This document shows, piece by piece, positions 5,306-38,734 of a stretch of DNA of 38,734 nt. The stretch comes from a virus (taxonomy: Duplodnaviria; Caudoviricetes), in IMG/VR virus record IMGVR_UViG_3300014201_000016, positions 1 through 38,734 of that record. The stretch is one strand, 5' to 3'. Every line of letters starts with the position of its first letter. Positions within the stretch are counted from its first letter, which is position 1. Position numbers and translations under genes: made by a program. The notes under the pieces are model-generated. The model saw only the letters and a program-made list of their open reading frames with translations, was not told where the DNA came from and ran no database searches.

Positions 5306-7450
5306 TTATCCGGTGATATTGACAGCAGGGGAGGACACATTGGTAACGATGATCGTGAGTACTCTGGAGGTCTCAGTAGCTATCGTGGCTACCAAAGAGA
5401 GATTACCGACCAGAGTTACACCGGAACCTGCAAGAATCGTCTCGGTGTGTCCTGTCGTGTTCTGAATCTCACACTGGAAACTCGATCCCACAACCGGAGG
5501 AGGAATGAACTGAGCCAGGATATTCGTTGCGGTATCTGTCGTATCGTTGAAGTTTCCCGACTGAGAGCCACCTCGAAGAATAATCCCGCTATAAAGTCCT
5601 GCAGCAGTGAGAGTTCCCGCTCCGACCGTGGATATGGTCGTAGTTGAAATAGACGGCGGAAAGGCATCCCAAGTCACTAGAGAGCCTGAAGTGGGTCGTG
5701 TATCCCCTCCTAGAGATGGCACTCCGTGAACGTTTACGGCTCCCCCGTACGTATTGGGGAATGAGCCGAAAGTAATAGCACTGCCACTGATTCCTGAGTC
5801 GGGTTGTATTCCTGTGACGTTTAGACGACAGGAAATCCCAGAAAATGCAGGAGCGGTAGTACTGATATACCAGTCTCCTCCAATCCAAGTCGCATTGCCT
5901 CCGTTCTGGTAGAAGCCATAATGGGTGAAGTCCTCCATGTGACAACCGATAAAGGTAGTCCCAATCGGACCACTCACAAAATAGCTTCTGTCTCCTCCTT
6001 CTCCATCACAGGTGATGAAACATCCCCCGGCATCATAATCCGCAATGTAATGTGCGCACCAATAGGTCGGAGTGATATCTGTTCCTTCATTCGCCATCCA
6101 GTCGACGAACCACGGACGGTTGGATGAGGTCATAGGTGCAGCAGTGGCAGCTACAGCGAAGTCCATGCAATTGATCCGGGTTGTATGATCCCCGCTCACC
6201 CACCCAAATCCTACGAACTGTGCTGCTGAGACAATGTTCTGGAACTTGGAATAAGCACTCCCTGTATTCTCAATACTGACCTGAAAATCATAGATAAGAC
6301 AGTTCTCTATAACTCCTTGGGGAGCGACGTTATATCTGATCCCCATGTACTGGGAGTTACTTGCAACTAAAGCAATGTTCTTGACCCCAACCCCTTGAGA
6401 GTAACTTCCATAGTTCGAGGTTTCCATGGCGTTTTCACCGACGGAGATCAGCTCGGTCATGCGGGTTCCGGCTGTGATTCCGGTAATCGACCAAGTAGAA
6501 GTATTCGTAGGCTGTGTCGTCCAAGGCCAGGAGACCGTCAAGACACCACTTCCACTCACGTAACTGTTAATAGGTCTAACCTGTCCCGAGCCTGTTCCCC
6601 CGGTGATCGTGATGTAGCCGTAATTGACTGTTAGACCCGTACTAATAGTGATCGTACTCGCCCCACCCGCAGAGGCAGTACCGTTATAAGCGGTCTGATT
6701 CACAAGCCAGAACCCTGAAGCGTCTATGGCGATGGATTGTTGAGTAGAACTCTTGTAATAGATCATCGCGCACTGCGGGGTGCTACCAGCAGCGGTCACC
6801 ACAAAGGCCTGCTGGATGGGTCCACAATCCTCTCCCACCAGATGCACATTGGAGTTCAGATACAAGGTGGAACTGACGATATATATCCCCCGAGGAATAT
6901 AAACCTCTCCGCCTTGGACTTGGCACTGCGCTTGAGTAGTTGGAGAGACGATGTAGCTGACAGAATTTATGGCTGATTGAAACGCAGTTGTGCTATCAGT
7001 AGTTCCAGTGGGATCAGCTCCGTATCTAAGAACATTACCGGAAGCGTACCAGTAATACGTCGGGGTGACTCCAGCAGTCTTTTCCTGGGTCGTCTGGGGA
7101 TATAAAACTCCCCCGATAATCGCTTGGGTTAATGCAGTGGGAAGATAAGTCCCCAGCATCACACTGAAGCCCTGGACGTTATCGACCGGCCATCCAGGAA
7201 TCTGATTTCCCGAAGCATCCGTCAGATTCAGCTTGTAGGAGAGCGTCGGATCGAGCCAGAGCGCACACTCCCCTCTCGAGTTGAGCACAATAGGATTAGT
7301 GTTGGGAGTTACCTCAGAAGAGGACGGATAAGTCGCTTGTGGAGTCGTGGTTCCAGCAATGTAGGAATAGAGCAATCCGCCGGCTAAAGGATTACCATTA
7401 TTGTCGAAAGCTTTAAAGACCGGAGTAGGAGCGAGTTGTGCAGTGGTCAT
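5306..7450 (-). CDS. tailspike with pectate-lyase-like beta-helix
   Basis: N-terminal virion-attachment domain (FDNNGNPLAGG...NPIVLNSRGE) and NVLRYGADPTGTTDSTTAFQSAIN...GGEVYIPRGIY beta-helix cap. Confidence 0.85.
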   Translation of the reverse strand: MTTAQLAPTPVFKAFDNNGNPLAGGLLYSYIAGTTTPQATYPSSSEVTPNTNPIVLNSRGECALWLDPTLSYKLNLTDASGNQIPGWPVDNVQGFSVMLGTYLPTALTQAIIGGVLYPQTTQEKTAGVTPTYYWYASGNVLRYGADPTGTTDSTTAFQSAINSVSYIVSPTTQAQCQVQGGEVYIPRGIYIVSSTLYLNSNVHLVGEDCGPIQQAFVVTAAGSTPQCAMIYYKSSTQQSIAIDASGFWLVNQTAYNGTASAGGASTITISTGLTVNYGYITITGGTGSGQVRPINSYVSGSGVLTVSWPWTTQPTNTSTWSITGITAGTRMTELISVGENAMETSNYGSYSQGVGVKNIALVASNSQYMGIRYNVAPQGVIENCLIYDFQVSIENTGSAYSKFQNIVSAAQFVGFGWVSGDHTTRINCMDFAVAATAAPMTSSNRPWFVDWMANEGTDITPTYWCAHYIADYDAGGCFITCDGEGGDRSYFVSGPIGTTFIGCHMEDFTHYGFYQNGGNATWIGGDWYISTTAPAFSGISCRLNVTGIQPDSGISGSAITFGSFPNTYGGAVNVHGVPSLGGDTRPTSGSLVTWDAFPPSISTTTISTVGAGTLTAAGLYSGIILRGGSQSGNFNDTTDTATNILAQFIPPPVVGSSFQCEIQNTTGHTETILAGSGVTLVGNLSLVATIATETSRVLTIIVTNVSSPAVNITG

Positions 7451-22998: not shown

Positions 22999-23952
22999 TT
23001 AATGCTTTTTGCGCTTCGCTCGCTCGTAGTCTCTCAATTCCCTAAAGGACATCTTGGAAGGGTCAGTATTGACCGTTCCGGTTCCAGTAGAGGAAAGGGG
23101 AGTGATCGGAGGCGGTGCTCCACCACGCTCGACTACCTTCGGAGGTTCCGGCTCTTTGACCGGGGGTTTCTCAAAGGTGAGCTCGAGCTTGCCGATTTCA
23201 GCTATCGCTTTGATCGGCGGTAGTTTCGAGATGCGATCCACTGTCTCAGGATGAGTCGCTAGGTGATAGCTCACATCCGGACCATATTCACTCTCGGTGA
23301 TGTATTGAAGCACCGCATTAGGTAACCAAGCTTCACTCTTGCCGATGGCTTCGTGAAAGTCTGGATACTTCTTAACCGCAGCATCGACCCTGGACTTGAA
23401 TTGGGATTCAATCCGGGTCTTCTCTTGCTGCTCCCTTTCCTGTGCTTGACGCACCCGCTCATCTGCTACAGCCTTCTTCGCTGCAAAGTCCGCTGACGCT
23501 TCGGTAAAGTCAGTCCATCTGACTTGTCCCTTATCGTCCGTGAAATCCTTAATATCAGGTTTCTTTAACTCGGGTTCTTTCGGAGGAACCTTTTTAGCTT
23601 CTGTCAGCTCCTTTTCCAGAGCTGAAGCTCGCTCCTCAGCCAATCTTGCACGATCGTACTGATTCTTGGCGAAAGCTTCAGCATCAGCCTGAGCCTCTTG
23701 GGCTTCTTTCATCTGGCGATGCTTTTTGTTGATCTTCTTGCGGACATGTTCGGTCAGATCAATATCGTCAGGCTCTAAACCTTCGTCCTCAGCAGGGATC
23801 GGAGGTGGTAGTGGAGCAGGAGTCTCAGCCTTTTCCTGTGGAGGAGGTGCAGCTTTTTCTGCAGGCTTGATCTCTGGCTTATCAGGTAGTGTTTCATGCT
23901 TGCCACTCTCGATAAACTCCTGAAGTCCTGCTCCCGTAATTACCTTGGCCAT
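22999..23952 (-). CDS. scaffolding protein
   Basis: Charged coiled-coil protein, KYPDF...ESEYGPDVSYHLA.HP...EIGKLE, basic C-terminus; start ATG 23952 overlaps the upstream TAA. Confidence 0.85.
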   Translation of the reverse strand: MAKVITGAGLQEFIESGKHETLPDKPEIKPAEKAAPPPQEKAETPAPLPPPIPAEDEGLEPDDIDLTEHVRKKINKKHRQMKEAQEAQADAEAFAKNQYDRARLAEERASALEKELTEAKKVPPKEPELKKPDIKDFTDDKGQVRWTDFTEASADFAAKKAVADERVRQAQEREQQEKTRIESQFKSRVDAAVKKYPDFHEAIGKSEAWLPNAVLQYITESEYGPDVSYHLATHPETVDRISKLPPIKAIAEIGKLELTFEKPPVKEPEPPKVVERGGAPPPITPLSSTGTGTVNTDPSKMSFRELRDYERAKRKKH

Positions 23953-24524
23953 TATTTCCTCACCCAAGTAGCCGAGATATCGAATACTGCGTCCTTGTAA
24001 AACTGAATCGCAAAAGTCTGTCGCTCCTGGTTCTTCGATTGGAACTCAGGATGCAACGTATAACCCCAAGTGCATTCGAAGTTGCAGCTATATCCTTCAG
24101 GATTCCATTGGATATCATTGTCTGGAGCGTTCTCATCCCGCCATTTCTTGGAGAGATAGTAGAACCACATCTCAGACACCGGAGGCCATTGGTGGGTGAA
24201 ATCCCCATAAGCTCGGTTGGAAGCCCAATATGGCGTGATGACATAGGCCTTAGCCTCCTTCTGCATCACTCGGTGCATCTCATTGACGACTTTCACCCTC
24301 TGAGGTCCGGTGAAGTGCTCCATCGCATGAGACATGTGGACTTCTGCCACCGATTCATCTTCCCACGGCCATCTTTCAGTGAGATCACAGATTACGTCTA
24401 CTCCGGGGAAAGAGCGTCTATCGACTCCCGTGTAGCCTTCCTTTTTGTTCTTCCCGCAGCCCAAATCCAATCTCGTGATAGACTGCGGTTCAACCAATTT
24501 CAATGCTGAGCGACGTTTAGCCAT
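23952..24524 (-). CDS. class I SAM-dependent methyltransferase
   Basis: RLDLGCG motif I, D.VICDL...WPW.D.SV..V...H..EH, EMHRVM, DFTH. Confidence 0.88.
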   Translation of the reverse strand: MAKRRSALKLVEPQSITRLDLGCGKNKKEGYTGVDRRSFPGVDVICDLTERWPWEDESVAEVHMSHAMEHFTGPQRVKVVNEMHRVMQKEAKAYVITPYWASNRAYGDFTHQWPPVSEMWFYYLSKKWRDENAPDNDIQWNPEGYSCNFECTWGYTLHPEFQSKNQERQTFAIQFYKDAVFDISATWVRK

Positions 24525-24924
24525 GCCAATACTCCGAGTATGTAAAACCTGCGGACAGTCTTATTCTGCTCCGCCCTCTCAAAAACTCTTTTTCTGCTCT
24601 AATGCCTGCTACCACGTTGCCAAGAAAGGGGCAGGTAACCCCAAGTGGCGGGGCGGCAATTTCATCTGCGATGGTTACCGCTATATCTATGCCCCCGATC
24701 ATCCCAACGCGATCAAAGCTGGTTATATCGTGGAGCACAGACTAAATATGGAAAGGAAACTCAAGCGCCTTCTAACCACCAAAGAAGTCGTTCATCACAT
24801 CGATGGCAACAGACTCAATAATTCCATCGACAATCTCGTTCTCTGCCAATCCACTGGTCATCATTTCATTACCGAGCATCTATCAGAAAGAGACAACAAA
24901 GGCCGATTCTATCGTACTAAATAA
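24523..24924 (+). CDS. free-standing HNH endonuclease with N-terminal zinc finger
   Basis: CKTC...FCSNAC, NPKWRGG, EHRL.ME..L.R.L...EVVHHIDGNRLNNSIDNL. Confidence 0.88.
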   Translation: MPILRVCKTCGQSYSAPPSQKLFFCSNACYHVAKKGAGNPKWRGGNFICDGYRYIYAPDHPNAIKAGYIVEHRLNMERKLKRLLTTKEVVHHIDGNRLNNSIDNLVLCQSTGHHFITEHLSERDNKGRFYRTK

Positions 24925-24934
24925 TGTCGTTTCC

Positions 24935-25675
24935 CTACCACATAGTATCTTCGGGTCCGAAGGCACCTTCGAGGTCATGATGGCCCACTTTCACGCTGCA
25001 ATCGATCGCACATCGATAGCCGTATTTTCTAGCCTCGGACCAGAATGCTAAATCTTGTGTCCCCACACCTTTGTTATCGATTCCTGTATGAGTCTTGAAC
25101 CAAGGCTTGGCTAATCTCTTGTCGGTGAACATCTTCAGCCGCCAGAGATTGAAACCCATTCCAGTTCCATAGCACTCCACCAATCCACCTTTGGGATCGG
25201 GAGGCTGAGGTCTGTAGTTCAGGACCGGATCAGAGATATCTCCCCAAATCTGCGCGCATCCGCCTTCGCCTTTAGTGAAGTAGAGCCCTCCGATACAAGC
25301 ATATTCGGGATGCAATTCCATTTCATCGACTAATTTCACGACTCCATGACTCGGAGGAGCGTTGTCGTGTTCGACCGTCAAGATATATTCCCATTTCTTC
25401 AGCTCATCATTAGCCAAGATGTTCTCTATGGCTGTGGAATAAGCGTCTCCGACTTCCATACCCTGGGCGAGAATCTTCACTACTCCGTTATTCGGAGGGA
25501 AAGCTAGATTCCACCAGGAAAGCATGCATTTCGCTGATACTTTCTCAGCGGCAGGCAAGATTACGATAATCCTCTGTTTCTTCCACGAGGAGCCTTTGAG
25601 AAGCCTGGCTGTGGTCTTCTCAGGCTCTGCATTGTGCTTACCGCCGAAATCCGCCATGACGAACTGTGGTTTCAT
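24935..25675 (-). CDS. GT-A fold (GT2-like) glycosyltransferase
   Basis: YILTVEHD (DxD-like), IGGLYF, GTGMGF.L, PWF, TQDLAF...AR..GY....D..VKVGH. Confidence 0.8.
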   Translation of the reverse strand: MKPQFVMADFGGKHNAEPEKTTARLLKGSSWKKQRIIVILPAAEKVSAKCMLSWWNLAFPPNNGVVKILAQGMEVGDAYSTAIENILANDELKKWEYILTVEHDNAPPSHGVVKLVDEMELHPEYACIGGLYFTKGEGGCAQIWGDISDPVLNYRPQPPDPKGGLVECYGTGMGFNLWRLKMFTDKRLAKPWFKTHTGIDNKGVGTQDLAFWSEARKYGYRCAIDCSVKVGHHDLEGAFGPEDTMW

Positions 25676-32983: not shown

Positions 32984-33006
32984 AATTTACTGCTTAAGCA
33001 GATGAT

Positions 33007-33243
33007 TTACCTTGTACTCGGCCAGCGATCGAATCTCGGCTGATAAACCGTTACTCCACCTGAATCATTGGGAATCTCGAAATGTCTTCCCATGTTCTCT
33101 TCCCTCTGCGTCAAGGTATCAATCTGTTCCAGGATTGAGAGTAACTGCTTCTGGACTTCTTTCATGCTGTTCTGCAATAGAAATACGTCTTGCTCTAGTT
33201 TCTCGATCCTGGGAATGACTTTGGGTGGGCCTCTTTTGGACAC
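33007..33243 (-). CDS. hypothetical coiled-coil protein
   Basis: 78 aa, GAGG RBS, GTG start. Confidence 0.55.
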   Translation of the reverse strand: MSKRGPPKVIPRIEKLEQDVFLLQNSMKEVQKQLLSILEQIDTLTQREENMGRHFEIPNDSGGVTVYQPRFDRWPSTR

Positions 33244-33353
33244 GAAACCTCACATTCAATGGAAAAGCCATTGAAACCAGAGCTTTAAACCTCTGTTTGC
33301 ATTCAAGACAAAATGTTAAATATTCAGGACACTCATGACCGCATTGTAAACAT

Positions 33354-33761
33354 CTAGGGGTCGAGAATAGCGGCAACATCGTCTTCGGTGCAGACAACGT
33401 GCTCTTTGGTTCCCCAGATGAATGTTTTGTGGAGATAGCCTTCAAGCTCTAATCCACCGAGCTCTACGATGTCTCCGACTTTGACCTGGGTCGGGACGAA
33501 ATGCTTACTGAGCCACCTTTTGGTCCTCTTCCCTTTCCGACCGTCGTATTTCCAGCCGTATTTTCCGGGACCCACGGCTTTGACTTTGCCCCTAAGTGTT
33601 CGGCCACGGTAGACGACGCTGATAATGTCACTGGGGCGCCATTCAAGCGGTTCAATGATGATCTGATTAAGTATCGGGCGTAAGCTTGAGGACTCAGGGA
33701 TAACCTCGGACGATTCATTGCCGATTCGAGTCCCAGCAACAACCGGACCACCAAAGCTCAT
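33354..33761 (-). CDS. GroES/Cpn10-like co-chaperonin
   Basis: LRPI.NQIIIEP...G.VKAVGPG...P..VKVGD.V...EDDVAAIL. Confidence 0.85.
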   Translation of the reverse strand: MSFGGPVVAGTRIGNESSEVIPESSSLRPILNQIIIEPLEWRPSDIISVVYRGRTLRGKVKAVGPGKYGWKYDGRKGKRTKRWLSKHFVPTQVKVGDIVELGGLELEGYLHKTFIWGTKEHVVCTEDDVAAILDP

Positions 33762-33910
33762 GATTTCTTACGGCTTTTCTGCTTTTTCTCGGCATACTCG
33801 GAATACGCAATAGCGGCCCTCTGCTTCTGAGGCCACTTCTGGTCTTTCTTCGCTCCCATGAAGCGGGAAATATATTCGCTAAGGGGCTCGCCCTTATTTG
33901 GGGTTGGCAT
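33758..33910 (-). CDS. small basic phage protein (50 aa, not in ORF track)
   Basis: MPTPNKGEPLSEYISRFMG...WPQKQRAAIAYSEY...; ATGA-coupled to the GroES-like gene. Confidence 0.7.
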   Translation of the reverse strand: MPTPNKGEPLSEYISRFMGAKKDQKWPQKQRAAIAYSEYAEKKQKSRKKS

Positions 33911-33945
33911 AGTCCCTAATTAGCCACGCCAAATGCTCAATAGCC

Positions 33946-34272
33946 TTAGGCATTGTTCTTCGTGGGCTCTACAGTCTTCTTGGACTGAGTCACATCCGAA
34001 GGATCGGTAGCTTTCGTGGAATGGACATTAGACTGATCGACAATTGTCGGAATCTTGACCTGCATTCCAGACTTTCCACCGACATAGTTATATCCAGGTC
34101 CATGACCTCCGGGTCTGAAGCCTGAGGCCTTTCCAGGCTCACCAGCGCCTAGAATCTTGCCTACCTGTCTTGCCCCATTGGTTAGCTCGAAAGCCTTCTC
34201 AGGACGGCCTGAGGAGGTATTCTCGCGGCCGTTGAATCGAGGTTGATTACCGTTTGGGACCCTGGAAGCCAT
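33946..34272 (-). CDS. hypothetical basic, Gly-rich protein
   Basis: Start MASRVPNG at 34272 overlaps the upstream TAA (TAATG). Confidence 0.6.
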   Translation of the reverse strand: MASRVPNGNQPRFNGRENTSSGRPEKAFELTNGARQVGKILGAGEPGKASGFRPGGHGPGYNYVGGKSGMQVKIPTIVDQSNVHSTKATDPSDVTQSKKTVEPTKNNA

Positions 34273-34469
34273 TAACCGAGCTCTCTGACCTTTGAGTGAT
34301 CCGTGCAATCGGAGTCTTTGGGGAGTCGAAATACCACCCCATCCTGATGGCCGCGTTCGCCGGCGTGGTTGTGATCCTCGATTCCTGCAACGGACTTCGG
34401 ATGACCCGATTCCTTCTTCATCCCCTTGTGGCTCGACTTGTTTTCGCCTCCCGGCGGCATATTGGGCAT
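34272..34469 (-). CDS. hypothetical protein
   Basis: 65 aa, GAGG RBS. Confidence 0.55.
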   Translation of the reverse strand: MPNMPPGGENKSSHKGMKKESGHPKSVAGIEDHNHAGERGHQDGVVFRLPKDSDCTDHSKVRELG

Positions 34470-34478
34470 TGAATTTCC

Positions 34479-34865
34479 TCAAGTGACAGAGACACACTCT
34501 AGCCGTTTATTACTCTCCAATTGTCTGACAGTCAAGCCGTATATGCGATGGTACAATATTCGGCGTGCACGACTGACCTTCACACGTAGCGCATTGACGC
34601 TCCAGCGCATCGTCTTGGCCTTCTCGTAGATGTTCCAGTATCCCCCAGAGGGCTTGAGATTAACGGCGTAGAAGACCTGTAATGCGGCCTGGTGCGATTC
34701 TGAGAGTCTCAAGATATGGTAGTGGACCTGCCAGACGGTCTTGGGCATCTCGGCGCAGAGGATTTTGTGGCCCGCCGGCTGATCGGACCAAGTGAGGGTA
34801 TGGCTGGCTTGATGGGGGAGACCCAGGTCCATATGATGACGCTCGTACCAGTCGCCCCATCTCAA
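34479..34865 (-). CDS. Q-like late regulator / sigma-region-4-like protein
   Basis: WG.W N-terminus, I..L.......L...Y, C-terminal HTH-like KA..M..S...L...VSRAR; sits just before the packaging genes. Confidence 0.6.
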   Translation of the reverse strand: MRWGDWYERHHMDLGLPHQASHTLTWSDQPAGHKILCAEMPKTVWQVHYHILRLSESHQAALQVFYAVNLKPSGGYWNIYEKAKTMRWSVNALRVKVSRARRILYHRIYGLTVRQLESNKRLECVSVT

Positions 34866-35269
34866 GAGCCGGCCGTGCAGTTCCTGGTACTCGAGCGAGA
34901 CTCGGATAATCCCTCTCCCTTTCCCTCAGTATTCCATAATCCAAGAGCTCGCTCAATCCACTGTAGAGCTTCCCCGGACTTGATTTGACTCGGTGCAACA
35001 CGAATTAAGCGCCAGCCTAAAATGGCTAATTCGGCGAACTTGCAGTTGTCCTCGAGTACCCCTGCCCCCCTAACGTGACGGCCTCGAGTCCACAAACCGC
35101 CATCCACCTCGATAGCTAATTTCTGTTCCACGTAAGCAATATCCAATCTCCATTGCCTCTTCGGATGAAACTTAAATTCACACACGAATCCAGAGAGTAA
35201 AGGATTAGCGTGTTTAAGTTCCCAGGCTAGTTGATCGGCTTTATCGACTCTCACGAATTCTCCAGACAT
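34862..35269 (-). CDS. PD-(D/E)XK-family endonuclease
   Basis: EFKFHPKRQWRLDIA...KLAIEVDGG...GRH.RG.G...D..K...A..LGWR. Confidence 0.8.
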   Translation of the reverse strand: MSGEFVRVDKADQLAWELKHANPLLSGFVCEFKFHPKRQWRLDIAYVEQKLAIEVDGGLWTRGRHVRGAGVLEDNCKFAELAILGWRLIRVAPSQIKSGEALQWIERALGLWNTEGKGEGLSESRSSTRNCTAGS

Positions 35270-35369
35270 ATTCAGCCCCCTTTCCCATCCGGATCCCAAC
35301 TCCGTGGTGGTACTTAGGCTCCCCAACTCATATTGTTCCTTTAGTGAATCAATGGCATACTGTAGTCCA

Positions 35370-35422
35370 AGCTAGCGTATCCGAGGGCCATCACCAGGTA
35401 GCGCACTGAGCTGGTGGCCCTC
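35370..35422. promoter_or_regulatory. hairpin motif, copy B
   Basis: AGCTAGC, then stem GAGGGCCA.CACCAG/CTGGTGGCCCTC carrying GGTAGCGCACTGAG. Confidence 0.6.
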
Positions 35423-35451
35423 ACTCTAGACATACTCCAACCCCTTTCCGG

Positions 35452-35778
35452 TCATGCAATCCTCTTCCTTCTTTGATGTTTGAAATGCTGTCTTATTAGG
35501 GAACACATTTCATCGAGTGATTTGCACTGCGGCAATCCTCGAATGATGTATGCAATTGGACCGTACTGAAACCATTCTCCATTAGCCGCATATCGATTAA
35601 GTAATTTGTGAAGCACGGCTTCCGTCTGTTCTGCGGCTTTCTCACTTTGACACAGAATTTTAAATAGCATCTTCAGCTTTACAGGATTACCTACCTGAAG
35701 ATCATTCATACGGTCTCGTGGGTTATTGGCTTTCCCAATCTTCACGTACTGATTAGCCTGTATAGCATAGACGTACAT
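35452..35778 (-). CDS. GIY-YIG (T5orf172/MUG113-like) nuclease
   Basis: YVYAI.....VKIG.A.NP.DRM.DLQVGNP...E..LH..L......GEWF; GGAGG RBS before ATG 35778. Confidence 0.85.
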   Translation of the reverse strand: MYVYAIQANQYVKIGKANNPRDRMNDLQVGNPVKLKMLFKILCQSEKAAEQTEAVLHKLLNRYAANGEWFQYGPIAYIIRGLPQCKSLDEMCSLIRQHFKHQRRKRIA

Positions 35779-35792
35779 AGATCCCTCCATGA

Positions 35793-36064
35793 CCCCCCCA
35801 CCCCCCATAATCAAGGGGTTAGGAGGGGCGACCTCCCTGCTTTAGTTTAGACTCGCGCCTGGATATAAGCCCCCAGCGAGTAGTCATCGATGAGGGTCAG
35901 GTGACTAGCCCATATACTTTCGTGCCTCAGACGGGTCCGAAAGCTTGGCCGGGTTGACTTTGGATGTCCGTTAGGCAGAATGTGCCTATCCGGATGCGCC
36001 GCTATCGCTCCGGCCCGGCTGTCAACCGGACCTACGCCCCCTTGGACATAATCCCTGGGGGCGT
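35793..36064 (-). ncRNA. candidate ~270-nt structured RNA ending in G6-T-G7
   Basis: No ORF; many stems (GGTCCG/CGGACC, GTTGAC/GTCAAC, CCGGA/TCCGG, TAGGCA/TGCCTA, ACTCG.CTGG/CCAG.CGAGT); promoter directly upstream. Confidence 0.65.
35954..35981 (+). promoter_or_regulatory. possible antisense sigma70 promoter
   Basis: TTGACT (35954-35959)-16 nt-CAGAAT (35976-35981); -10 imperfect. Confidence 0.45.
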
Positions 36065-36071
36065 TTCTTTT
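36034..36071 (+). terminator. intrinsic terminator on the plus strand
   Basis: ACGCCCCC/GGGGGCGT 8-bp stem with inner GGA/TCC, followed by TTCTTTT. Confidence 0.7.
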
Positions 36072-36097
36072 ATAGTCCTACAGTTTGAGGTAATCAA
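36069..36097 (-). promoter_or_regulatory. sigma70 promoter
   Basis: Minus strand TTGATT-17 nt-TATAAA. Confidence 0.7.
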
Positions 36098-36156
36098 GTC
36101 TGACATAAACTCGGGTTTGACTGTTCCATTAGCGCTACAGTAGACTCATTCTAAGC

Positions 36157-36579
36157 ATGCTTTGTATCAGAGGCGTCCTCACCGGTTACCGGCCCGAGCT
36201 GAGGCGCCTCATTTGCTGGACTGAGGACTGGCGAGTCTATTCGGCAAACTCCCACTCGCCACAGGAGCCACAAAATCCAGCGTCCGAAGGCGCCGGGCAT
36301 GCCTACTCCAATTACGAGATGAAGCTTCGCGTTTTCGCGCTTGAGAGCCTTGTTCTTTCGACATGCGTGTCAATAAAGCGAGGTGGGGGCGGATTAACTC
36401 TAAAAGCCGGACAAGATCAGGCGAAGGCGTGGATCGAGCGGCAAGCTTTCGACTTGGAAAAGGAATTACAGCAATCCGAGATTTGGAAGTCTTTACCGGA
36501 GCCGAAGCATCTAACCGTCGAGCTTTTCCGCGCCGAGCTTTCTGACTTGGCATCACGAGTTGGTCACTCCAATGGTTAA
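36157..36579 (+). CDS. hypothetical protein (start uncertain)
   Basis: 140-aa ORF overlapping the next plus-strand gene; only the C-terminal half looks protein-like. Confidence 0.4.
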   Translation: MLCIRGVLTGYRPELRRLICWTEDWRVYSANSHSPQEPQNPASEGAGHAYSNYEMKLRVFALESLVLSTCVSIKRGGGGLTLKAGQDQAKAWIERQAFDLEKELQQSEIWKSLPEPKHLTVELFRAELSDLASRVGHSNG

Positions 36580-36727
36580 GAAAAAGCAGCCTAAAGACAC
36601 CCCCGAGCAGCAGCACACGCGCTTTGTCGAAGCGGCTAAGAAAGCTGAAGCCGATGAAGCGCCGGATGCTATGGATAAGGCGTTCAAGAGGATTGCCTTG
36701 GAGAAGAAGGCCCCACGGAAGCCATAG
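36572..36727 (+). CDS. small helical protein (51 aa, not in ORF track)
   Basis: MVKKKQPKDTPEQQHTRFVEAAKKAEADEAPDAMDKAFKRIALEKKAPRKP. Confidence 0.7.
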   Translation: MVKKKQPKDTPEQQHTRFVEAAKKAEADEAPDAMDKAFKRIALEKKAPRKP

Positions 36728-37625
36728 TGGTCCTTTTCATGTATCCGTCTATTAGCGATCGTCGGACATTCGCTAATGCGCCCGGTTTGTAGCGCATGAT
36801 AGTAAGTCGGTCCCTTTTTCCAGAAGGGGTCGTGCCATCGTCCTGTGAAATAGGTTTGCCTTCTCGCGTTTTAATTTCCCTAACTCCTTGCGAGAGCGCT
36901 AGGAAATCTCCAGCCATCAATGGATCGCATTCTTCTTTGGCAGCAAATGTAAGTTCACCAAGTAAATCGTATTCTGATCCCTTAAGATCCCTTTTTATCT
37001 CGTTAAAAATCCGCAGCGCATCGCCTGCATTCTTGTGCCCACTTTCCAGAACGCAATGCAAGGTAGGTAACTGACCACGATGTTTCCGACGCGCCGCCTC
37101 GACAACGAAATGCATGAGGCAGTTATGTACGCATATTCCGTACTTGCTATCTAGGCGCAGTTTTTTTGGCTTCTCACCAGTTTTGTACTCGGCCTCATAT
37201 GCAGCGTTATCGAGCACCGCAACCGCGCTTTCCATAAAGGCATTACTGGTTAGTTCGTATAGAGCCTCGACCAGCGCAATACATTTCTCGTTACTCCATC
37301 CTTTAAATTCGCCGGTCTTGTGTTTAAATTTCCTGGTGTGGAACACCTTGAAGCCGTATTCCCTCTTGATGATCCGGTAGGCTCCTTCGAATGCTTCCCA
37401 TTGACGAGCGCTCGCCATAGCGCCGCCGACCACGGTAACCGGCGACCCGTCGTGCGTATGGCCCTCATCAAGGTAGCCAGTAATGATCACAAATAGACGC
37501 TCAGCCTCCCACCTGTGGGCAATAGCAACGCAAAGTTCACGCGCAAACGACAACCACCTAAGGCCGCTATCATCATAGCGCCTCTGGTTTGCGAAGTGTA
37601 ACGTCGCCTTATTCTTTGCTGCCAT
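36684..37625 (-). CDS. DUF3800-like RNase H-fold protein (start may be further downstream)
   Basis: GYLDEG.TH....VVGG......W, FH, V.E.G, K....PL.A.DFLA. Confidence 0.75.
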   Translation of the reverse strand: MAAKNKATLHFANQRRYDDSGLRWLSFARELCVAIAHRWEAERLFVIITGYLDEGHTHDGSPVTVVGGAMASARQWEAFEGAYRIIKREYGFKVFHTRKFKHKTGEFKGWSNEKCIALVEALYELTSNAFMESAVAVLDNAAYEAEYKTGEKPKKLRLDSKYGICVHNCLMHFVVEAARRKHRGQLPTLHCVLESGHKNAGDALRIFNEIKRDLKGSEYDLLGELTFAAKEECDPLMAGDFLALSQGVREIKTREGKPISQDDGTTPSGKRDRLTIMRYKPGALANVRRSLIDGYMKRTTMASVGPSSPRQSS

Positions 37626-37785
37626 TTCCCATGGCCTTAAGAAGCTTCTGCAGCGTCACATAGCTAGGCTTAAATTCTCCCTTGATGAGATAATGCAGCG
37701 TTCTAAGGGATATTTGAGTAGCCCTCGATACTTCCGCCACACCAGTTGACCGTATATAGCGCTTAATCTCATCGATCTGCGTCAT
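37609..37785 (-). CDS. Cro/XRE-type HTH regulator (58 aa, not in ORF track)
   Basis: MTQIDEIKRYIRSTGVAEVSRATQISLRTLHYLIKGEFKPSYVTLQKLLKAMG; first gene at the strand divergence point. Confidence 0.85.
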   Translation of the reverse strand: MTQIDEIKRYIRSTGVAEVSRATQISLRTLHYLIKGEFKPSYVTLQKLLKAMGNGSKE

Positions 37786-37791
37786 TCCCCA

Positions 37792-37852
37792 ACTATACGC
37801 TTAAAATAATTCTCCGCAAGCTATTGCATCCTGCAAAGGATTGCAGTAGCTT
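37792..37852. promoter_or_regulatory. divergent promoters with operator-like inverted repeat
   Basis: Minus: TTGCGG-16-TATAGT ending 6 nt before the HTH ATG; plus: TTGCAT-17-TAGCTT; imperfect palindrome AAGCTA-TTGCA-TCCT...AGGA-TTGCA-G-TAGCTT (37818-37852). Confidence 0.7.
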
Positions 37853-37876
37853 ATCGGCCATGGATGCGGAGGGCTA

Positions 37877-38080
37877 ATGGACGATCCACAAGGCAACGAG
37901 CAGCTAGGCGAGCAAGAGCGAGCGCTCCTGGATGCTGATCCGGGATATATCGAGTGGCTGGAGAGCTTGGATAAGCATATGGAAGTCTATGAACGCTGTC
38001 ATGGAACTGGTCTCGTCACCCTCCATGGTCTCTATTACGGTGGCGATGCCGATGATCAACCCTGTCCGGAGTGCAAATAA
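37877..38080 (+). CDS. small acidic early protein
   Basis: GGAGG RBS; partial zinc-finger tail (ERCHGTG...CPEC). Confidence 0.6.
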   Translation: MDDPQGNEQLGEQERALLDADPGYIEWLESLDKHMEVYERCHGTGLVTLHGLYYGGDADDQPCPECK

Positions 38081-38083
38081 ATC

Positions 38084-38734
38084 ATGAATGTCAAAATAAA
38101 CGAAGCCCTAGCGCGCAAGGTGCTGGGTATTGTCGATGCGGGCCTGGTGCATGGGTTGGGCAAACCCGAGCCCGGCAAGATGTGCGTCGAGGCTGCGGTC
38201 AACTACGCCTTGGGTGCCCCTCACGGCGATGCCCCGGCTTGCGTCGCACCGACTTTGCGTCTTTTGAAGATTTATCTCAATGACTCACGCTGGTCCTCAG
38301 ATGCCGCGCGCACCAAGGGACTACGACGATTGGCTATTGCTCAGCTCGGCAGTGCCGCTGCATTGGATGAGCCAGAATTCGCACGTCGAGTCGTACGTCT
38401 TGCAATTCAGAAAGTTGTCCCGCAGGCGTTGAGAGCAGCAGCAAAGATTGCCACGGGTGAGCACCAGGTCGAGCTTTTGCGAGCCGCTAAGGCGTGTGAA
38501 GACGATCCCACACGCGTGAATGCAGTGAGCGCGAGCACCGCCAGCGCCACCGCCAACGCCGCCTACGTCGCCAACGCCGCCGCCAACGCCGCCGCCGCCA
38601 ACGCCAACGCCTACGTCGCCAACGCCTACGCCAACGCCGCCAACGCCGACGCCACCGCCGCCTACGCCGCCACCGCCACCGCCGCCGACGCCGCCCACGC
38701 CGCCTCCGCCGCCACCGCCGCCTACGCCGCCGCC
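38084..38734 (+). CDS. protein with alanine-rich repeat region (3' partial, not in ORF track)
   Basis: MNVKINEALARKVLGIVDAGLVHGLGKPEPGKMCVEAAVNYALG.PHGD.P.CV...LNDS.WSSD.AR.KGLRRLAIAQLGS..., open to the window end. Confidence 0.85.
   Translation, partial: MNVKINEALARKVLGIVDAGLVHGLGKPEPGKMCVEAAVNYALGAPHGDAPACVAPTLRLLKIYLNDSRWSSDAARTKGLRRLAIAQLGSAAALDEPEFARRVVRLAIQKVVPQALRAAAKIATGEHQVELLRAAKACEDDPTRVNAVSASTASATANAAYVANAAANAAAANANAYVANAYANAANADATAAYAATATAADAAHAASAATAAYAAA
38534..38734 (+). repeat. degenerate (GCC)n coding repeat
   Basis: 67 consecutive codons ending in C, mostly GCC with AAC/TAC/ACC/GAC/GTC/CAC/TCC/AGC. Confidence 0.9.

Follow-up and report, generated by a model that had tools for sequence, protein, structure and literature searches.

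Introduction

Replication of ColE1 depends on host RNA polymerase, a persistent RNA-DNA hybrid, RNase H and Pol I, and is controlled by a three-hairpin antisense RNA directed against the 5' end of the long RNA (PMC5043065, PMC8683028). RNA-based plasmid origins of Vibrionaceae, MRB (pB1067) and CLV, have also been described (PMC3035462, PMC5703827, PMC5737381), and a 488-bp homologous core is given for the MRB origin (PMC3035462). RNA-based prophage origins as such are already published for mycobacteriophages: those of the cluster A phages RedRock, Alma and LadyBird lie beside parABS (PMC7157519). In lambda, the OOP RNA is antisense to the 3' end of cII and its promoter overlaps the start of O (PMC3349717, PMC6022878), and the C-terminal part of the O protein is the proposed P-binding domain (PMC6022878). 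A split G tract in the transcribed strand, as at CSB II, can hold an RNA-DNA hybrid (PMC3488243), and T4 primes from R-loops (PMC3016281).

The window, which is the whole stretch of viral DNA that was analysed (38,734 bp, also the entire assembly), was the subject of an earlier note that proposed a ColE1-like origin in it. The observation as a whole was confirmed: the locus carries a conserved two-RNA element, both RNAs being predicted. The sequence comparisons indicate that the element is real and conserved, and it most likely represents a new RNA-primed origin family of tailed phages. No report of an element of this kind in the O/P slot of lambdoid phages was found in the literature searched, which included few subscription papers.

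Layout of the element in the window

The window encodes P22-like portal, coat, scaffold and terminase proteins (Pfam, PHROG). Both of its ends lie inside one kind of Ala-rich repeat gene, so that it is probably near-complete and nearly a closed circle; about 1.6 kb may be missing, because the same Q-like protein is found on a 40,345-bp contig. The words of the window were present at a fraction of at least 0.27 in four sequencing runs, all of them wetland metagenomes. The features of the region are as follows.

37609 to 37785, minus strand: Cro-like HTH gene (HTH_3 and repressor PHROGs, weak)
36069 to 36097, minus strand: promoter-like site of the long (primer-like) RNA, TTGATT-17-TATAAA (sequence)
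36034 to 36071, plus strand: hairpin and T-rich tail, predicted antisense terminator (stem-loop III; folds)
35987 to 36071, plus strand: predicted antisense RNA of about 85 nt (fold z -3.17, three hairpins; ends predicted)
35954 to 35981, plus strand: antisense promoter-like site, TTGACT-16-CAGAAT (sequence scan)
35891 to 35934, minus strand: conserved core of the long RNA, a 5-bp closing stem around an ACGAAAG loop and a second hairpin
35793 to 35806, minus strand: G6-T-G7 tract, predicted R-loop nucleation site (sequence)
35452 to 35788, minus strand: GIY-YIG-type endonuclease gene, T5orf172/MUG113 (Pfam PF10544, PF13455; PHROG homing endonuclease)
34479 to 35326, minus strand: downstream nuclease-like and Q-like genes (PHROG 503, function unassigned there)

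The minus-strand boxes TTGATT (36097-36092) and TATAAA (36074-36069) were read directly from the sequence with a spacer of 17 nt, and the long RNA is predicted to start near 36062-36066. The plus-strand boxes TTGACT (35954-35959) and CAGAAT (35976-35981) are 16 nt apart. In the folds, the hairpin at 36034-36064 is followed by the T-rich tail and is also the first hairpin of the long RNA. The G6-T-G7 tract (35806-35793) is the single match in the window, compared to 0.03 expected. Both promoters and the G tract were thus found where the earlier note had placed them, and the predictions bore out the stem-loops that it had claimed for the antisense RNA and the terminator beside the start of the long RNA. 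The sense strand, 281 nt, folded with -123.5 kcal/mol (z -3.44). Prefix folds predicted that the first hairpins re-pair with downstream sequence as the long RNA lengthens, a behaviour that an antisense-sensitive switch would need. The stretch had been called ORF-free, which does not strictly hold: a 59-aa plus-strand ORF (35964-36143), for which Pfam and PHROG gave no match, overlaps the element.

The single signals of the element are each weak. A promoter scan of 33000-38734 listed five promoter-like sites against 4.1 expected and did not call the sense promoter, whose last -10 position lacks the T. The element's terminator was not called by a terminator scan, a crude sliding fold ranked the element 5th among 56 segments, and the cumulative GC skew showed no turn singling out the site. 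The element stands above chance because it is conserved in relatives.

The locus had been set between the Cro-like gene and the nin/Q-like genes; this order holds, but about 1.5 kb with a DUF3800 gene follows the Cro-like gene. The cassette between Cro-like gene and element (window 36157-37625) consists of the DUF3800 gene facing a 55-aa ORF, and it is absent in L001, L003 and L048, three of the relatives described below. The label of the gene that had been called Q-like is based on its position, and no Pfam or PHROG family match was obtained for it. The endonuclease gene has a Shine-Dalgarno sequence directly past the tract and a likely start at 35778. It is missing at the same place in relatives and gone in a strain variant, and is regarded as a passenger, possibly a homing endonuclease.

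Relatives of the element

Copies of the element were found in the window and in eight other phage records, with two more (L004, L007) counted provisionally. L001 and L003 were reached by searches with the Q-like protein and the terminase, and L048 through the 5' motif; in these three, the element lies directly after Cro/HTH genes. L113 (genome G001) was found with a Q-like profile, and its slot has an 18-nt core in common with the window. A search with this core returned seven viral loci, of which L144, L145, L148 and L149 have further common sequence; the remaining three were dropped as chance matches. When the window was left out, a profile of L001, L003 and L048 recovered it at E 1.6e-15 in 296 kb and a profile of L113, L144, L145, L148 and L149 at E 9e-8 in 296 kb. 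These values are optimistic, since the 18-nt core had served to find L144, L145, L148 and L149, and the 5' motif to find L048, which makes the conservation of both motifs a product of the search. The window itself is mosaic, with a 5' module that aligns with the first of these groups and a core that aligns with the second.

L004 and L007 have the same layout and core as judged by eye. The covariance-model search that the earlier note had suggested placed L004 at the top of 383 kb, though with an E of just 0.14, and did not find L007; with the model weak for one and silent for the other, both copies are provisional only.

Wider scans were also performed. A scan for AGTCAA plus a G tract gave 61 loci, the sole true element among them being L072, which is L003. 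A metagenome scan gave 24 loci; two of them, L116 (L003) and L127 (the window), are real, and a third, L125, is weak, with E 0.001 and no tract. A relaxed core scan gave 30 loci, four of them known and none new. Among 301 genomes of the order of G001, only G001 and the chance match L196 were obtained. Rfam gave no match for the window or the copies (best E 0.51, unrelated), and blastn against phages and plasmids gave chance matches only. Similar G tracts were also seen behind HNH genes and opposite long ORFs, on their antisense strand. Other ORF-free phage stretches with split G-tract ends (L053/L089, L058, L088, L052/L073/L087/L093/L099) are unrelated by profile.

Conserved anatomy and covariation

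With promoter anchors set by hand across the 11 copies, a sense promoter-like site (TTG-17/18-xA, scoring 7-10/12) was present at the start in 10 and absent in L145. In seven of the 11, including copies with barely alignable 5' parts, an antisense -35 lies 142-147 nt from the sense -35. Six of these seven sites score at least 8/12, a level reached by 28 of 644 background stretches of 120 nt. Antisense sites of 7/12 occur at other distances in L144 and L007, and the promoter scan found none in L148 and L145. The antisense strands of eight copies were folded; z ranged from -2.4 to -4.2, and every one has a terminal hairpin, the stem sequences of which differ. Three hairpins within about 85-90 nt were found in six of the eight (window, L001, L003, L048, L113, L149).

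The core is common to the window, L113, L144, L145, L148 and L149, and provisionally to L004 and L007. In its alignment, 93% of cells are paired and G-U pairs are retained. By statistics that ignore relatedness, the covariation score of 0.349 was reached by none of 500 shuffles, with slid controls at 0.02-0.15, and double changes were seen in 3/9 pairs, a count matched by 107/500 shuffles and therefore alone not significant.

Every copy ends in a G-rich or purine-rich tract. The G run is split in the window, L001, L003 and L048, the tract is of the GAGGG-R-GAAAGGG type in L144, L145, L148 and L149, L113 has a single G6, and L004 and L007 have purine tracts. The distance from the sense -35 to the tract is 274-341 nt in the 10 copies with a sense promoter, and the RNA-DNA switch point may lie downstream of it. 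In L144, L145 and L149 (3/9 copies), the tract is followed at about 30-50 nt by paired DnaA-like boxes, against 0.06-0.10 single boxes expected per 300 nt; no pair was found in the window and five others (6/9). The gene after the tract varies between copies, and this speaks against a leader that serves a single gene.

The initiator slot

The element occupies the O/P slot of P22-like and lambdoid phages. PHROG scans, which may miss a diverged initiator, cover only ORFs above the size limits given and, with scanned regions overlapping by 1 kb, could miss a longer gene over a border, found no initiator, helicase, primase or polymerase in the window (66 of 66 ORFs of at least 100 aa), in agreement with the claimed absence of the first three. 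The same result was obtained for ORFs of at least 150 aa in G002 (91% complete, 32 ORFs), G003 (82%, 45 ORFs), G006 (66%, 40 ORFs) and G005 (37%, 34 ORFs), and for the 70 ORFs of at least 100 aa in a 41.9-kb insert in G001. G004, which is complete with terminal repeats, has no replication-family PHROG in 100 ORFs of at least 150 aa, and on the L001 and L003 contigs none was found in 15/24 and 12/21 ORFs of the 10 kb before the terminase. The same PHROG library does name initiators or primases in L006, L022, L025, L030 and L039.

Among 45 terminase loci, 15 could be classed by slot content. The five loci just named (5/15) carry a full initiator or primase in the slot, and L002, which is cut, a P-like gene as judged by eye. 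The element is in the slot in L003, L004, L007 and L010 (4/15). In another four (L015, L018, L021, L043), a promoter and an ORF-free stretch precede a short gene with a C-terminal-only match to initiator families, and L011 has an ORF-free stretch with neither element nor C-terminal initiator gene. In L007, the provisional copy is followed by a gene that matches only the C-terminal part of an initiator family. The C-terminal-only sites are L007:5400-6415, L015:1690-2633, L018:5028-6333, L021:4629-5515 and L043:1980-3522. Homology to the element was not seen in the ORF-free stretches of L011, L015, L018, L021 and L043; those of L021 and L043 have an end motif in common. Possibly, L007, L015, L018, L021 and L043 represent further RNA-origin families that keep a helicase-recruiting domain.

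In the terminase tree, in which the saturated branches of L148 and L149 were ignored, the element-bearing L004 is sister to the initiator-bearing L030 (100/99), and the window groups with L002, L010, L003 and G001 (100/99). Read informally, these positions suggest that slot contents were exchanged more than once.

An early protein of about 200-225 aa, with no Pfam or PHROG match, is conserved in L001 (3631-4308), L003 (4600-5265) and L113 (6122-6718) and was not found in the window. Its structural neighbours are all below threshold, and several are OB-fold proteins; DUF3127 is among them. G006 carries both the element and an integrase (L145 / L163:2840-3075 and 6362-7447). Its copy, L145, lies directly after a small gene and has DnaA boxes and no promoter and antisense module. 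In this one case, the lack is as expected if copy control matters only to non-integrating phages.

Comparison with described systems

The element resembles ColE1 in having no recognised initiator, convergent promoter-like sites, a predicted three-hairpin antisense RNA over the 5' end of the long RNA, a predicted terminator beside its start and a G tract. Moreover, a perfect DnaA box lies shortly past the ColE1 origin, as does a box pair downstream of some element copies. However, the predicted antisense RNA is about 85 nt long compared to about 110 nt in ColE1, and the distance from start to tract is about 260-275 nt compared to 550 nt to the ColE1 origin. ColE1 is a small multicopy, usually mobilisable plasmid, whereas the element lies in the O/P slot of 38-65-kb tailed phages, beside genes such as the P22-like portal, coat and terminase of the window, and no Rop or relaxase match was found.

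Local alignments of the nine copies with ColE1 did not exceed shuffles. Neither the nine-sequence profile nor the covariance model matched ColE1, and the model also found nothing in pB1005; Rfam gave no match to ColE1 RNA I (RF00106), and plasmid blastn gave none. The description of the locus as ColE1-like therefore holds for the layout, with its predicted antisense hairpins and no recognised initiator; it does not extend to sequence or profile homology. A resemblance to parts of ColE1 RNA II was not above shuffled controls and was discarded. A search of the phage collection with the ColE1 origin returned 11 records; nine are 81-94% alike, five of these being only 1.5-5.3 kb long, and they were judged to look like vector or plasmid DNA. 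The other two correspond to a stretch of 83 bp between genes of Salmonella phage SE2 (L199:3001-3083), which matches the 5' part of the ColE1 origin at 78%.

MRB/CLV and PAGEV share with the element an ORF-free origin, a terminator flanked by A/T runs, a short negative-acting antisense RNA and a long RNA. The MRB RNA I has 68 nt and two stem-loops, and the MRB RNA II 465 nt (PMC3035462), in contrast to the three hairpins predicted in about 85 nt here. No plasmid blastn match was obtained, and the element is set apart from pB1067 by description, not by sequence. The PAGEV motif (RF03037) was not found at E<=10 in the window or L149, nor at the gathering score in 12 loci. By every test run, the element is not a member of ColE1, MRB or PAGEV.

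The cluster A mycobacteriophages are likewise tailed temperate phages with a non-coding RNA replication region, exchangeable with repA or integrase cassettes (PMC7157519). Their origins are used by the prophage, and lytic growth is normal when they are deleted; the available portion of that report describes no antisense control RNA (PMC7157519). In the phages studied here, unlike those, neither par genes nor other replication genes were found.

Lambda oop/ori is similar in map position, in its short self-terminating antisense RNA and in a link to replication silencing (PMC3349717). Lambda differs in needing O, P and iterons and in that OOP targets cII. The antisense target of the element is non-coding, and the window gave no match to cII or O. 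OOP is a possible ancestor of the antisense module.

The tract formula at the mitochondrial CSB II is G5-6AG7-8, and T4 encodes its own replisome. Antisense control is not part of either system, and several element copies have a purine tract with short G runs. The proposed CSB II-type tract is seen as G6-T-G7 in the window and in similar form in L003, L048 and L001, but not in L113, L144, L145, L148 and L149. A hybrid quadruplex as at CSB II is thus possible for the window tract, not for all copies, and because G6-T-G7 is not universal it is not a family-wide mechanism. A hammerhead reading of the core was rejected, the hammerhead consensus not being matched by eye.

Interpretation of the element

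The reading preferred here, with a probability of roughly 0.65, is that the element is an RNA-primed, antisense-controlled origin that works like that of ColE1 in phages without a found initiator gene. It is favoured because the layout is that of ColE1, the site is the usual one for an origin and the genomes show no other means of initiation. The comparative support drawn from the sequences appears real and comprises the two-promoter geometry, the three-hairpin antisense RNA, the slot exchange, the lack of replication genes in complete or near-complete relatives and the DnaA boxes of 3/9 copies. In the scheme that we infer, which includes both transcripts, the R-loop, RNase H/Pol I priming, helicase loading and copy control, host RNA polymerase would make the long folding RNA from the minus-strand promoter. 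This RNA would stay hybridised at the G tract as an R-loop and prime DNA synthesis, with RNase H and Pol I acting at the element and the host helicase being loaded there. The antisense RNA of about 85 nt would block priming as copy number rises, and long RNAs that do not end up as primers would continue into the nin/Q-like genes.

The possibility was considered that the element is an OOP-like antisense regulator together with a structured leader from which the rightward early operon is read. The short RNA would then destabilise or attenuate the nin/Q-like transcript, and replication would start elsewhere through an unrecognised protein or site. The lambda oop RNA is indeed described as a self-terminating antisense transcript of 77 nt that lies at the cII-O junction, the same map position (PMC3349717, PMC6022878), and the long RNA leads straight into the Shine-Dalgarno site at 35788. 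However, the scan called no terminator on the sense strand within 35793-36070, about 200 nt separate the antisense target from the first ribosome site, the downstream genes vary and the window has no cII or O gene here. Four relatives with full initiators do not show the two-promoter geometry, although the hairpin detector used also missed the true hairpins of L004 and L007. Such a regulator would account neither for the missing replication genes nor for the tract or the DnaA boxes, and this explanation is considered unlikely.

An origin that is not primer-based is also improbable, more so than the regulator. Transcription would then open the DNA, the helicase would be loaded by host DnaA or by a small protein of the phage, either the C-terminal-only initiator or the OB-fold-like early protein, and the folds would be signals in single-stranded DNA or the R-loop. 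The DnaA-box pairs in 3/9 copies, the C-terminal-only initiator genes past the ORF-free stretches of L007, L015, L018, L021 and L043 and the early protein of about 220 aa in L001, L003 and L113, with several OB-fold proteins among its sub-threshold neighbours, are consistent with this; comparative folds cannot separate RNA from single-stranded DNA (PMC5737381). The window, on the other hand, lacks a DnaA pair, a C-terminal initiator piece and a gene at the place of the early protein, and the G-U pairs retained in the core also count against it.

Very improbable is an element without a replication role, be it an RNA for superinfection exclusion or immunity, as in P4 CI or P1 C4, or a mobile non-coding cassette that the neighbouring endonuclease spreads. 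In its favour, the ORFs of the window included no recognisable gene for a CI-like repressor opposite Cro (Pfam, PHROG), alleles swap with sharp borders that include the endonuclease gene, and the window combines the 5' module of one group with the core of the other. Against it, Rfam, C4 families included, gave no match at E<=10, relatives carry the element without the endonuclease, and module swapping is expected of incompatibility determinants too.

If the element is an RNA-primed origin, a prophage living as a plasmid is conceivable, with the odds somewhat against it; this step is weaker because an integrase is present in one member (G006) and partition genes were not found, Pfam and PHROG scans of the window having matched neither ParA nor ParB. 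It may be mainly in lytic growth that the origin is used. More tentatively, and on balance doubtfully, the initiator protein of a lambdoid/P22-like lineage could have been replaced stepwise by RNA. A structured primer RNA under antisense control would first have assumed the recognition and opening of the origin, with only the C-terminal, helicase-recruiting part of O kept (L007, perhaps L015, L018, L021, L043), and this part would later have been lost as well. Were that true, tailed phages of up to 65 kb would replicate, lytic cycle included, without a replication protein of their own, and the swappable antisense modules would be incompatibility groups.

Many environmental lambdoid genomes have no recognisable replication gene, and a 300-bp RNA element would, if the RNA-primed reading is true, be a testable explanation. 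It would also carry RNA-primed, antisense-controlled replication beyond small plasmids and the prophages of mycobacteria to the main origin of lambdoid phages, link lambda OOP and transcriptional activation to ColE1 priming, and could provide compact new replicons for soil and wetland Proteobacteria.

Strain variant, metagenome runs and the G001 insert

In run X1, a 270-nt contig at a depth of 3.7, compared to 10, represents a minority allele that swaps 35324-36033 for 210 other bases. The 710 bp replaced comprise the antisense promoter, the core, the tract and the endonuclease gene; the promoter and hairpin are kept. Runs X4 and X7 diverge at the same point with loose ends, in which 30 bases of what is likely the same allele are visible. 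These form a hairpin; a short run of purines precedes it on the sense strand and could mark where another tract ends. A scan for the variant allele gave no matches. The variant suggests homing or module exchange at 35324-36033, and represents either a swapped primer module or proof that the element is dispensable; the latter would follow if the variant has no equivalent element.

The RNA run X3 gave eight scattered contigs, one of which (245 nt, 35877-36121) crosses the promoter, and X8, also an RNA run, gave no contig on the element. Because such contigs carry neither strand nor ends and may be DNA, they are no evidence of transcription.

A whole 41.9-kb relative, circularly permuted, is present at G001:C1:2,564,001-2,605,982 (L141, L142, L150, L151). 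G001 is an alphaproteobacterial assembly, and the insert lies in a pyridoxal-kinase-like gene (labelled by eye). It splits the host gene and a phage gene, has a 33/34-bp flanking repeat and has no integrase. Since it may be a misassembly or chimera, or an unusual insertion, G001 was set aside as host evidence.

Two further regions of the window were noted. The early-left region encodes two paralogous proteins with 11-residue repeats, in addition to the Ala-rich gene at the contig break (1225-1806, 2286-2789, 38084-38734). Between the portal region and the scaffold gene, 23952-25675 holds a methyltransferase gene, an HNH endonuclease gene on the opposite strand and a gene of 246 aa of unknown function.
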